From a virus, in the IMG/VR virus record IMGVR_UViG_3300028840_006907, positions 224,001 to 288,000 of that record: DNA of 64,000 nt; one strand, given 5' to 3'. Of the stretch, positions 19,016 through 21,643 are shown one piece after another. Within the stretch, counting starts at the first letter, position 1. Every line of letters begins with the position of its first letter. Both the position numbers and the translations under genes were made by a program. The notes under the pieces are model-generated. The model saw only the letters and a list, made by a program, of their open reading frames with translations. It searched no databases and was not told where the DNA came from.

Positions 19016-21643
19016 ATGACATGTAAAATTTGTAAGAGTAATCTTTCTTATACTTTTGATAAATTTCCAGCTTATAAGTTCTGTCCTTGTTGTAACCTTT
19101 ATTTTCAAGAAGAATTTCCACCAAAGATATTTGAAGGTCCTGATGAGAATAACGGGCATGGTCCCGGTACAGGTCATTTAATGTCTGAGGATGAAAAGGA
19201 AATAAATAAAAATTTCGCTAATGTTCTCTATGATATGTTTATTCCTCGAACTCTTCTAGATATAGGTTGTAAATACCCCTATTTTATTAGTGTGTTAAAA
19301 GATAAAATAGATGTATTAGGAATTGATCCTATTTCAGAGATCTTGAAATATGGAGAAGAATTGGGTGTCTCTGTAATTCGTGATGATTTTGAAGATATGA
19401 ATATTACTCCTTTAAAAAATAAATTCGATTTAATAACTTTGATACATACTTTCGAACATTTTTATAGCCCAATAGAGACCATGAAAAAGATAATCGAATG
19501 TCTTACTCATAGAGGAGTGCTTTTAATAAGAATTCCAAACATAGATATTGAAGGTATAGAAAGAGATTTTACTGATCATCATGTTCAAATCCATCCCTTT
19601 ATATATTCAACACAAGCAATGTATCGAATCGCTCAAAAATTTGATTGTGAAATTTTTAGGGTCGATGATATTATTGGATATGGCCAGAGCGATTTTTATT
19701 TAAGGAAGAAAAGGGACCATCTTTCTTTATCGGTTTGTATGATTGTAAAAGATGAGGAAAAGAATGTTTCTGATTGTTTGGAGAGTATAAAAGATGTAGC
19801 TGATGAAATCATAGTTGTGGATACCGGATCTATAGATAATACCAAAGAAATAGTATCCAAATATACAACAAAGATATATGACTTTAAATGGATTGATGAC
19901 TTTTCTGCTGCTAGAAATCACTCTTTAAGTAAGGCAACGGGTGACTTTATTTTATGGCTTGATGCTGATGATATTGTAGAAAATCCAGAAAAGATTAATG
20001 AAATATTAAAAAATGATGATGCTAAGATATTTAATTTTAATATTAAATATGGAAATGATGTCTTTAGTCAGGCTAGACTATTTAGGAATTTTTATAATAT
20101 AAAATTTTCTGGTAGAGTTCATGAATATCCTGTAATCGATAATTTATATATAAAAGATACTGAAGTTAATGTAATTCATAAAACCGAAAAACATTCAACA
20201 GAAAACCGTTCTGATAGAAATCTCCGTCTCCTTAAAAAAGAATACGAAGATAATCCGAACAATTCCCGGACACTTTTTTACCTGGCAAGTGCTTATAAAG
20301 AACTTACTCGTTGGGATGAAGCTATAGATTTTTATCGAAAATATTTAACTATTTCTATCTGGAAAGATGAGAGATGGATGGCTCAAAAGAATATTGGATG
20401 TATTCTTTCCTGGAATAGAAAATATGAAGAAGCCATTGAAGAATTGAAGAAGGCTATTGAAATAGATGATCGATGGGCTGAGTCATATTATTATATAGCT
20501 GAGTGTTATTTCTATTTAAAAAACCCTCAAGAATGTATAAACTGGTCTTTAAAAGCTATTGAGAAAAAGATGCCCGAATCACCTCTTTGGAAAGAGATCC
20601 CAATTTATAATGACGCACCATACCGTTATCTCTTTGCTTCTTATGGTTCTTTAGGTGATTTTGAGAAAGCATTGCATTATTGTAAGATAGCATCAGAAAA
20701 AGTTCCTGAGGATGAATGGCTTAAGGAAAGAGTCACTTATTTTGAGAATGCTACAAAAGGAGTTCCTGTTGTAGTCGAATGTAATCGGTGGGGGGCTTTG
20801 GGTGATTGTTTAATGACAACTGCATCTTTACGTGCCATTAAGCATAAGATTCCGGGTTGTTTTATAAGATATGTCACCCATCCTAGTATGTTCCCGATCC
20901 TTGAAGGGAATAAGTTTATAGATGAACTTGTATCAGAATCTAAATCTGAGAACTCAGAAAAGGTTTATTTCTCATATCCTGACAGTAAATCTCCTATTAA
21001 AGATGAAGGTTATCCTAATAAGCCTTTGAATCGCCATTTAGTACGTATATTCGCAGAATGTGCTGGTTTAAAAGAATTTGATAATCTAAAGATGGAGTGT
21101 ACTCTTACAAAAGATGAGGAGAAATCAGGTCAGTCATTGAGATCTCGATTTAAGAAATATGTGACTCTTCATATCCATTCGGGTTGGTCTGAGTATAAGG
21201 ATTGGTATAATGATCGTTGGGAGACTGTTGTAGATGAGTTATTTAAAAGAGGTTACGTGGTTGTTCAGCTAGGCCATAAAGATGAGGGTCTCTTAGTTGG
21301 TACTGTGGATTATAGAGGCCATACTATAAAAGAAGCTATCTCTGCAATAAAATATGCTGATATTCATTTAGGAGTGGATTCATTTACAAACCATGCCTCG
21401 GCTACTGTGGGGACTCCTGCAGTTATTTTATTTGGGTCTACTTCTCCAACCGGTTCCGGGTATGATCAGAATATAAACCTTTATAAAGATTTGAAATGTC
21501 AGCCTTGTTATAAAGAATATGCATGGTCTAAGGATAATAAAGGAAAATGTCCTTATAATAAACTATGTATGGATCAGATCCTGGTTCAGGAAGTATTAGA
21601 CGGTTTTATGAGATTAGAAAAAAAATTATTTATTGATGGATAA
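19016..21643 (+). CDS. multi-domain glycan-modifying enzyme: Zn-ribbon, class I SAM methyltransferase, GT2 glycosyltransferase, TPR repeats, C-terminal GT9 (heptosyltransferase-like) domain
   Basis: N-terminal CxxC...CPCC; MTase motif I LLDIGCKYP; GT2 region DEIIVVDTGSIDNT...WIDDFSAARN...LWLDADD; TPR-like helical region; GT9-like GALGDCLMTTASLRAIK; 875 aa. Confidence 0.7.
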   Translation: MTCKICKSNLSYTFDKFPAYKFCPCCNLYFQEEFPPKIFEGPDENNGHGPGTGHLMSEDEKEINKNFANVLYDMFIPRTLLDIGCKYPYFISVLKDKIDVLGIDPISEILKYGEELGVSVIRDDFEDMNITPLKNKFDLITLIHTFEHFYSPIETMKKIIECLTHRGVLLIRIPNIDIEGIERDFTDHHVQIHPFIYSTQAMYRIAQKFDCEIFRVDDIIGYGQSDFYLRKKRDHLSLSVCMIVKDEEKNVSDCLESIKDVADEIIVVDTGSIDNTKEIVSKYTTKIYDFKWIDDFSAARNHSLSKATGDFILWLDADDIVENPEKINEILKNDDAKIFNFNIKYGNDVFSQARLFRNFYNIKFSGRVHEYPVIDNLYIKDTEVNVIHKTEKHSTENRSDRNLRLLKKEYEDNPNNSRTLFYLASAYKELTRWDEAIDFYRKYLTISIWKDERWMAQKNIGCILSWNRKYEEAIEELKKAIEIDDRWAESYYYIAECYFYLKNPQECINWSLKAIEKKMPESPLWKEIPIYNDAPYRYLFASYGSLGDFEKALHYCKIASEKVPEDEWLKERVTYFENATKGVPVVVECNRWGALGDCLMTTASLRAIKHKIPGCFIRYVTHPSMFPILEGNKFIDELVSESKSENSEKVYFSYPDSKSPIKDEGYPNKPLNRHLVRIFAECAGLKEFDNLKMECTLTKDEEKSGQSLRSRFKKYVTLHIHSGWSEYKDWYNDRWETVVDELFKRGYVVVQLGHKDEGLLVGTVDYRGHTIKEAISAIKYADIHLGVDSFTNHASATVGTPAVILFGSTSPTGSGYDQNINLYKDLKCQPCYKEYAWSKDNKGKCPYNKLCMDQILVQEVLDGFMRLEKKLFIDG

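Follow-up and report, generated by a model that had tools for sequence, protein, structure and literature searches.

Multi-module GT2-TPR glycosyltransferases encoded beside collagen-like genes in a huge tailed phage are candidate enzymes of fibre glycosylation

What do two paralogous fusion proteins, each joining a family 2 glycosyltransferase (GT2) to tetratricopeptide repeats (TPR) and a class I S-adenosylmethionine (SAM) methyltransferase, modify in a virus that also encodes very long collagen-like proteins? The question is raised by ORF1 and ORF2, two open reading frames (ORFs) in a stretch of 64,000 nt (positions 224,001 to 288,000 of IMG/VR record IMGVR_UViG_3300028840_006907), the whole of which is here called the window. 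The source genome, of ~470 kb, is that of a huge tailed phage and not of a nucleocytoplasmic or other eukaryotic giant virus, because the window encodes a large terminase, a portal, a prohead protease, and an HK97-type major head (capsid) protein. With modest confidence we lean towards the answer, predicted from sequence and gene context, that ORF1 and ORF2 decorate the phage's own collagen-like fibres by O-glycosylation of threonine, since related genes adjoin Thr-rich collagen-like genes far beyond chance.

The association was measured within 10 kb around each anchor gene, counting as collagen-like any ORF whose uninterrupted G-X-Y runs of seven or more triplets add up to at least 14 triplets, and the ORF1-type, ORF2-type, and distant GT2-TPR viral sets were each compared with a random viral set by Fisher tests. 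Among the dereplicated ORF1-type viral loci, 24 of 43 (~56%) have a collagen-like ORF, seven of them within 1 kb (p = 6e-16), compared with 1 of the 119 random loci (~1%; chance 15-mer matches, 1.05 Mb). ORF2-type viral loci are positive in 7 of 11 cases (p = 2e-8) and more distant phage GT2-TPR loci in 14 of 68 (p = 3e-6). Viral loci that match only the family 9 glycosyltransferase (GT9) part of ORF1 gave 2/18, both resembling truncated ORF1-type loci. Bacterial genome loci are positive in 26 of 80 cases, and all four full-architecture loci from proteobacteria or bacterial metagenome-assembled genomes (MAGs) have a collagen-like ORF. At 13 Clostridia/Bacillota loci the collagen-like ORF starts no more than ~400 nt downstream of a GT2-TPR gene of ~350 aa, which is the arrangement of sgtA and bclA3 in Clostridioides difficile. 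Thr is usually the commonest Y residue of the neighbouring collagen-like ORFs (typically 40–90%). The proposal of virus-encoded fibre glycosylation made in an earlier note on this DNA is thereby sustained as regards the enzyme classes, the conserved synteny, and the co-occurrence, whereas the glycan on the fibres stays a prediction.

The same note had counted two collagen-like proteins in this genome, and we recover both (CL-A and CL-B) by Pfam Collagen matches and long G-X-Y runs; their positions, and those of the other features discussed, are collected in the table. We propose CL-B as the main candidate acceptor and CL-A as the second. CL-B contains 593 G-X-Y triplets in five blocks, with Thr at Y in 259 (44%), Gln in 239, and Lys in 6, and Pro occurs only 13 times at X and Y together. 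CL-A has 120 triplets, 51 of them with Thr and none with Lys at Y. Both proteins match PHROG tail-fibre families, and the signal comes largely from the repeats; the tail-fibre matches of CL-A include non-collagen parts as well.

The distance from ORF1 to the start of CL-B, downstream, is 608 nt, and a single small antisense ORF lies in this interval; it has no Pfam or PHROG match and is kept at the same place in four other contigs (L001, L002, L367, and L368). In L367 and L368, where the ORF1 homologues are 75% identical, the order of ORF1 homologue followed by orthologous collagen gene is also kept, and a relative with a 58% identical ORF1 has collagen-like genes on both of its flanks. The lectin-domain proteins encoded downstream of CL-B are part of the same structural module.

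Table. Positions of the features discussed (window coordinates unless a contig is named)
Feature	Position	Strand	Description
ORF1	19016..21643	+	875 aa; Zn-ribbon/methyltransferase, GT2, TPR, GT9
ORF1 Zn ribbon and class I SAM methyltransferase	19016..19711	+	aa 1-232; Cys C3, C6, C23, C26
ORF1 GT2 (GT-A) module	19724..20200	+	motifs DTGSxD, FSAARN, DADD, HE
ORF1 TPR module	20207..20755	+	TPR_1/TPR_2 54.8/53.4 bits, within aa 400-530
ORF1 GT9-like GT-B module	20768..21640	+	four-Cys finger C828, C831, C845, C851
ORF2	61866..63947	+	693 aa; GT2, TPR, methyltransferase, conserved C-terminal domain
ORF2 GT2 (aa 1-165) and TPR (aa 171-354)	61866..62927	+	part paralogous to ORF1
ORF2 class I SAM methyltransferase	62943..63476	+	LNLGCGG motif
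ORF2 C-terminal Rossmann-like domain	63567..63944	+	aa 568-693, ~125 aa
CL-B collagen-like fibre protein	22251..31487	+	3078 aa; Pfam Collagen (PF01391) E 6e-225
CL-A collagen-like protein	3040..10053	+	2337 aa; Collagen E 2e-47; collagen block aa 1011-1382
Small antisense ORF	21626..21940	-	104 aa, between ORF1 and CL-B
Three ConA-like lectin (Laminin_G_3) virion proteins	31499..37173	+	Pfam E 4e-22 to 3e-45; PHROG virion structural
HK97-type capsid gene	52565-53437		head-gene block; ORF2 adjoins the block
Collagen gene in other assemblies	L001 13236-22472; L002 13236-22178

Assemblies that share an identical ORF1 differ in the length of the CL-B gene, which encodes 3078 aa in the window and 2980 aa in L002 and is split into 581 + 2404 aa in L001, and the contigs of close relatives end inside the collagen repeats. 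These differences indicate either repeat-number variation or assembly collapse.

Both ORFs lie where the earlier note had placed them, and the GT2, TPR, and SAM methyltransferase of each, as well as the GT9 of ORF1, score above the Pfam gathering cutoffs; Pfam and NCBIfam hidden Markov models (HMMs) served as proxies for CAZy in assigning glycosyltransferase (GT) families. The motifs quoted there are also present, WIDDFSAARN in both proteins, DADD in ORF1, and DGDD in ORF2, and they are invariant across homologues. About 30 full-length homologues of ORF1 (35–76% identity) share its four-module order, while some lack the methyltransferase and others have an added sulfotransferase or extra GT modules. 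The AlphaFold2 model of ORF1 has a mean predicted local distance difference test score (pLDDT) of 88.4.

The N-terminal module of ORF1 contains a Methyltransf_23 domain (aa 77–213; 57.5 bits, cutoff 27) preceded by a Zn ribbon whose four Cys are nearly invariant; the module is deleted in homologues P0024, P0027, and P0029. Its model matches the nucleoside diphosphate (NDP)-sugar C3-methyltransferases MtmC, TcaB9, and KijD1 in Foldseek (E ~1e-9), which suggests that the methyl group goes to a sugar and not to a protein. The target template modelling (TM) score against the TcaB9/MtmC type is 0.46–0.48, and the module, of ~232 aa, is without the separate third (C-terminal sugar-binding) domain of the known enzymes.

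The GT2 module that follows matches Glycos_transf_2 (PF00535; aa 239–359, 74.3 bits, cutoff 23.3), and the residues D269–T276 and D316/D318/D319 (DADD), which make up the nucleotide-binding and DxD motifs, are invariant in 30 homologues, as are F296/A299–N301 and H369/E370. Residues 398–580 are all-helical in the model and align, together with the GT2, to SunS/ThuS. The C-terminal module matches Glyco_transf_9 (PF01075; aa 690–834, 39.2 bits, cutoff 22); invariant here are D597 in a GD motif of the N-lobe, K728 in a GWSxYKxW segment, D788 in a GxDS segment, and the four C-terminal Cys.

ORF2 has more than 100 full-length homologues (43–78% identity), encoded on contigs that reach 590 kb; their motifs are as well conserved as those of the ORF1 type, and genes of the ORF2 type are near-universal in this phage clade. 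Its model (pLDDT 88.7) comprises a Glycos_transf_2 domain (aa 6–136; 63.8 bits, cutoff 23.3) in which the DGDD motif (D84, D86, D87) and HE are invariant in 35 homologues, a TPR region (TPR_1, 31.5 bits), and a Methyltransf_11 domain (aa 392–440; 39.0 bits, cutoff 21.2) that also matches the methyltransferase family phrog_6636 (E 2e-12). The C-terminal domain, which the earlier note does not mention, alternates strands and helices in the model and conserves W571, R583–R585, D644, E647, E687, and D688. It matches Glyco_transf_4 below the cutoff (E 0.0037), and the top 50 fold matches held nothing specific; it is possibly the N-lobe of a GT-B.

The earlier note had described a common architecture for the two proteins. 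This holds as paralogy for the GT2-TPR region, to which the BLASTP alignment of ORF1 and ORF2 is confined (34% identity over 330 aa, E 2e-41), but the methyltransferases are without obvious common descent. Both are modelled as alternating strand/helix folds, and they were probably acquired independently or shuffled, because that of ORF1 is N-terminal and that of ORF2 follows the TPR, and the match between the two reaches just E 0.019.

The GT2-TPR cores group with the soluble GT-A+TPR enzymes that glycosylate a protein or peptide directly, namely SgtA, GmaR, SunS, and ThuS. Among PDB sequences, GmaR is matched at E 6e-28 by ORF1 and 5e-18 by ORF2, and SunS at 5e-19 and 1e-12. With Foldseek both cores match SunS/ThuS (E ~3e-19 to 5e-19) over 370–383 columns spanning the GT-A and TPR parts, and the models superpose on SunS. 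SunS is also the top NCBIfam match (TIGR04195, E 4e-22); the scores of ORF1 and ORF2 (78.7 and 49.3 bits) are far under the equivalog cutoff of 350, so this is a family resemblance and not orthology. No solved structures are nearer to the two cores in sequence and fold than GmaR, the Listeria flagellin O-N-acetylglucosamine (GlcNAc) transferase, and SunS/ThuS, which are soluble enzymes acting directly on a polypeptide; however, their acceptors are flagellin or the Cys of a small peptide, and they have no extra catalytic modules.

SgtA of C. difficile is a GT-A+TPR protein of 358 aa that is encoded immediately upstream of bclA3 and in vitro transfers beta-O-GlcNAc onto Thr of the collagen G-P-T repeats of BclA3, a collagen-like protein of the exosporium (PMC7157674). 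The likeness to ORF1 and ORF2 is drawn from architecture and gene order: a GT-A is followed by TPR, the ORF1 gene stands beside a collagen-like gene with Thr-rich Y positions, and bacterial homologues of the core (31–38% identity) are found immediately upstream of collagen-like ORFs in many Clostridia. SgtA consists of these two domains, whereas ORF1 and ORF2 are phage-encoded and carry a methyltransferase, GT9, or extra Rossmann modules, and in place of G-P-T the phage repeats are G-X-T/G-X-Q, X being Val, Ile, Gln, or Glu.

A different model had been offered by the earlier note, which appealed to the glycosylation of collagen-like proteins in giant viruses. Mimivirus L230 joins a GLT25D1-like GT to a 2-oxoglutarate/Fe (2OG/Fe) hydroxylase, hydroxylating lysine and then glucosylating the hydroxylysine, and like the enzymes predicted here it modifies virus-encoded collagen-like proteins. 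This route cannot apply to the present phage, because its collagens are nearly Lys-free at Y and neither ORF1 nor ORF2 has a hydroxylase module, Pfam scans of the two returning no 2OG/Fe oxygenase family. By analogy, the fitting precedent for collagen glycosylation would be the bacterial pair SgtA/BclA3. For the fusion of activities there is a further parallel in A064R of Chlorovirus PBCV-1, a GT + GT + sugar O-methyltransferase fusion for capsid-protein glycans (PMC9614988). It likewise places two GT modules and a glycan-capping methyltransferase on one viral polypeptide, but the virus is eukaryotic, the capsid glycan N-linked, the GT families unrelated, and TPR absent, which makes this a parallel of design and not of descent.

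Whether the GT9 module of ORF1 is of the lipopolysaccharide (LPS) or the protein type bears directly on its acceptor. Foldseek returned a Veillonella GT9 (3tov; E 3e-13), TibC, and WaaF (E 5e-11), in that order, and these lie too close together for the fold search to separate LPS-type from protein-type heptosyltransferases. In phmmer the module alone barely detects GT9 in the PDB (3tov, E 0.016), and a profile of 15 homologues was used instead. In the profile alignment D597, K728, and D788 align to the MGD, DDKHW, and VDTG segments of WaaC, whose D13, K192, and D261 are the catalytic Asp and the donor-site Lys and Asp. Only with TibC does the alignment reach the C-terminus, where C828, C831, C845, and C851 fall on TibC Cys339, Cys342, Cys358, and Cys370; the four-Cys iron finger of TibC is needed for its assembly and activity. 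The alignment to TibC begins at profile position 133, and the N-lobe aligns to canonical GT9 (3tov, WaaC).

The module is nonetheless not filed as a bacterial autotransporter heptosyltransferase (BAHT; TibC/AAH), because it has no TibC-type N-terminal beta-barrel and its 22.8 bits against the curated TibC/AAH model (TIGR04414) are below the cutoff of 200. The curated LPS heptosyltransferase models give similarly low values: RfaQ 37.4 (cutoff 467), heptosyltransferase III 35.1 (170), heptosyltransferase I 28 (185), and heptosyltransferase II 20.6 bits (135). The module shares with TibC/AAH and WaaC/WaaF the GT-B fold, with WaaC the aligned catalytic Asp and donor Lys/Asp, and with TibC the Cys finger, but differs from them in its low scores against all curated heptosyltransferase models and in being fused C-terminally to GT2-TPR.

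What is observed here is the identity of the modules, the conservation of their catalytic residues, the paralogy, the synteny, and the statistical association; from these we infer an acceptor, sugars, an order of steps, and a purpose. ORF1 and ORF2 would be phage-encoded cytoplasmic multi-module protein-glycosylation enzymes. Their TPR part would bind the acceptor fibre protein, and the metal-dependent GT-A part, with its DxD motif, would move a first sugar from a nucleotide sugar to Thr at the Y positions of the proline-poor G-X-T/G-X-Q repeats of CL-B or, as the second candidate, of CL-A. The GT9 module of ORF1 may add a second sugar, heptose from ADP-heptose by family precedent, attached to the first sugar or else to additional Ser/Thr, and methylation of a sugar would fall to the Zn-ribbon methyltransferase. 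A further residue would be added and methyl-capped by ORF2, and the glycan could be extended by the GT/methyltransferase fusions, the 243-aa GT-A-like protein, and the UDP-glucose-type dehydrogenase encoded just outside the window (described below). Glycosylated Thr stabilises the triple helix in other collagens; the purpose may, speculatively and by this analogy, be to stabilise a hydroxyproline-free triple helix and/or to shield or tune the fibres.

Several observations weigh against fibre glycosylation. In this genome ~30 kb separate ORF2 from the closest large gene of the collagen-like kind, and ~44% of the ORF1-type and ~80% of the distant phage GT2-TPR loci have no collagen-like ORF within 10 kb, a sizeable share showing that the collagen link is not obligatory; the ORF1-type negatives were counted within the stretch available at each locus. 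The loci are phylogenetically non-independent, and the control loci are shorter on average. GmaR, the best PDB match, has flagellin and not collagen as its acceptor. The GT9 module scores the LPS models (RfaQ E 1e-9; 3tov 6e-13; WaaC 9e-8) better than TibC (4e-5; 2e-6), and with scores far under the SunS and heptosyltransferase equivalog cutoffs, donor and acceptor specificities are not transferable from these families.

The match to GmaR, a flagellin-modifying enzyme, would also fit with another protein as the target, whether capsid, tail tube, lectin-domain virion proteins, or host flagellin. The position of ORF2, which adjoins the head-gene block and not a collagen gene, and the near-universal presence of its type in the clade favour such a target, as does the fact that glycosylation of capsid and tail tube is established in phages (Freeman et al. 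2023, as cited in PMC12619734); in mycobacteriophages Che8, Corndog, and Myrna, GTs encoded by the phage glycosylate proteins of its own virion (cited in PMC12619734), as proposed here for ORF1 and ORF2. Another protein target would, however, leave the recurrent and often immediate adjacency to collagen genes in phages and bacteria unexplained, and no flagellin-related context was seen in the window. We consider such a target unlikely.

Remodelling of the host envelope (LPS core heptosylation, O-antigen, capsule, or teichoic acid), for instance for superinfection exclusion or to avoid the trapping of progeny, is distinctly unlikely in our judgement. ADP-heptose:LPS heptosyltransferases make up most of the GT9 family, and the ORF1 module obtains its best HMM scores against RfaQ, heptosyltransferase III, and WaaC. 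The core family, phrog_13126, which also includes distant GT2-TPR relatives in jumbo phages of Erwinia, Dickeya, Pseudomonas, and others, is annotated in PHROG as 'beta-1,4-glycosyltransferase, moron/host takeover', and O-antigen pathways commonly include GT2 enzymes and methyltransferases. Yet the GT2 is fused to TPR and nearest to soluble protein/peptide GTs rather than to membrane-associated polysaccharide synthases, and neither membrane segments nor flippase or polymerase genes were seen nearby. Moreover, the collagen association is a property of GT2-TPR-GT9 loci and not of viral loci with GT9 only, and the TibC-like four-Cys finger points to a protein target.

A SunS-like S/O-glycosyltransferase maturing a small antimicrobial peptide (glycocin) of the phage is very improbable: SunS, named in the PDB as derived from the SPbeta prophage, is the top match in both NCBIfam and fold searches, but the score is far below the equivalog level, the GT9 and methyltransferase fusions and the collagen association would go unexplained, and no Cys-rich precursor, ATP-binding cassette (ABC) transporter/peptidase, or thiol-disulfide oxidoreductase is encoded beside either ORF. 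DNA glycosylation was rejected, as GT2-TPR and GT9 are not known DNA glycosyltransferase families and the neighbourhood is structural.

Within the window, Pfam scans of ten ORFs surrounding ORF2 revealed no other glycan genes. In the same phage, just past the right end of the window (L085, 12838-22082), more glycan genes follow ORF2. They encode a 243-aa GT-A-like protein, a UDP-glucose/GDP-mannose-type dehydrogenase, and a 994-aa fusion of GT2, GT4, and methyltransferase whose N-terminal part is Glyco_trans_1_2-like; the genes there also include one for a thymidylate kinase and one for a 270-aa protein, a short stretch of which is collagen-like.

The identical ORF1 protein occurs on further metagenomic contigs of 389–470 kb. 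Megablast of the ORF1 DNA against GenBank phages gave no match and hence no close DNA relative there. Scans of IMG/VR with ORF1 or ORF2 as a single protein query found nothing, whereas alignment-based scans did retrieve loci. Four-module relatives of ORF1 (29–32% identity, nearly full length) are encoded at L166–L169, on MAG contigs from Burkholderiaceae, Casimicrobiaceae, and further proteobacteria, of which one measures 1.3 Mb; each of these prophage or cellular loci has collagen-like ORFs beside it. A paper that recently described a related lineage of large phages names several 'putative glycosyltransferases' among the core genes, with targets unassigned (PMC12619734).

Inteins (Pfam Intein_splicing and LAGLIDADG_3) interrupt the ORF1-type homologue P0011 and the ORF2-type homologues P0128, P0130, P0136, and P0147. 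The 391-aa protein encoded directly upstream of ORF2 (60608-61783) carries a tandem pair of HNH/endonuclease VII-like modules with Cys-rich repeats. Several HNH families in PHROG match it, and it is possibly a homing endonuclease beside a gene family that hosts inteins elsewhere. The portal protein (43131-46484) is unusually long (1117 aa), with the portal match confined to aa ~700–1010 and weak, mixed matches in its long N-terminal extension.

Just upstream of ORF1 is an ORF-free gap of ~1 kb that contains three tandem units of ~200–230 nt at 18232-18870. Each unit reads, in order, a conserved TCTAA..GGGCTTACAA, a T-arm, an acceptor 3' strand, a linker hairpin, an acceptor 5' strand, a D-arm, an anticodon arm, and a conserved ACGCTCTTTTAACT, and its two ends pair like an opened long variable arm. 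From their sequences the units look like circularly permuted tRNA genes. ARAGORN and Rfam made no call on the units as they stand; with the halves rejoined in silico, ARAGORN calls tRNA-Cys(gca), tRNA-Lys(ttt), and tRNA-Ser(tga). The rejoining controls were partly clean, shuffled sequences giving 0/72 calls and the 5' half of unit 3 also being called with foreign 3' halves. L367 (9030-9850) and L368 (9650-9840) have four and one to two units, respectively, at the same place and encode RtcB 6–8 kb away; in L368 the RtcB gene (2051-4390) is unusually long (779 aa) and the helicase (1-1662) has an intein match. RNAalifold of eight units yields 44 pairs, 35 of them with compensatory changes. Some of the anticodon loops are without U33 and vary between homologous units, and searches of IMG/VR with 15-mer and 20-mer motifs of the units returned chance matches only. 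The units may give rise to a tRNA in two pieces or to one ligated by RtcB. A 2014 review lists permuted tRNA genes from algae and archaea only, with other junction positions, and the units may be more novel than the glycosyltransferases.

Upstream of the units is a canonical tRNA (window 17956-18032; L367 8762-8836; L368 9274-9349). Its anticodon is Leu(UAG) in the window and Arg(UCG) in L368, while in L367 ARAGORN leaves a 6-nt loop unassigned; the remainder is similar, which suggests fast anticodon turnover. Between this tRNA and the units lies a conserved non-coding element (window 18040-18200; L367 8840-9010) that begins with AGCACCTTCAACTTGTGCAGAACTA and includes a region of ~110 nt closed by the long-range helix AGTCAGACAT/ATGTCTGACT, with a conserved AGGGCGTACATGG...GGGGCGCACT. 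The element has no Rfam match and is largely deleted in L368.

Collagen glycosylation by the GT-A+TPR enzyme SgtA, glycosylation of mycobacteriophage virions, and the GT-GT-methyltransferase fusion of A064R are already known. To our knowledge, phage virion glycosylation has been shown so far for only a few mycobacteriophages, on different targets; the study of Freeman and colleagues is said to place them at the C-termini of capsid and tail-tube subunits, and reportedly describes neither a collagen-like acceptor nor a GT2-TPR-GT9 fusion. In the literature we found no description of the methyltransferase-GT2-TPR-GT9 fusion, of its spread among large phages, or of its pairing with G-X-T collagens. 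A bolder proposal, which we regard as doubtful, is that the ORF1-type protein of huge phages and some bacteria is a dedicated assembly-line enzyme which, helped by the ORF2-type protein, builds a short, methylated, possibly heptose-containing O-glycan on hundreds of Thr in proline-free collagen-like tail fibres, the glycan stabilising the triple helix in place of hydroxyproline and coating the fibres, and that the GT2-TPR/G-X-T-collagen pair is an ancient two-gene module of spore-formers, proteobacteria, and phages.

Were host envelope glycans the target instead, ORF1 and ORF2 would represent an unusual host-takeover tool. If the phage's own fibres are the target, glycosylation would explain what stabilises or protects collagen helices that are very long and free of hydroxyproline, and the proteins would be self-contained multi-step glyco-enzymes for making glycosylated collagen-like biomaterials or phage fibres with altered host range or immune visibility. 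A GT2-TPR gene next to a G-X-T collagen gene would then be a widespread, readily spotted signature from which glycosylated fibres could be predicted, in bacteria as well as in phages.

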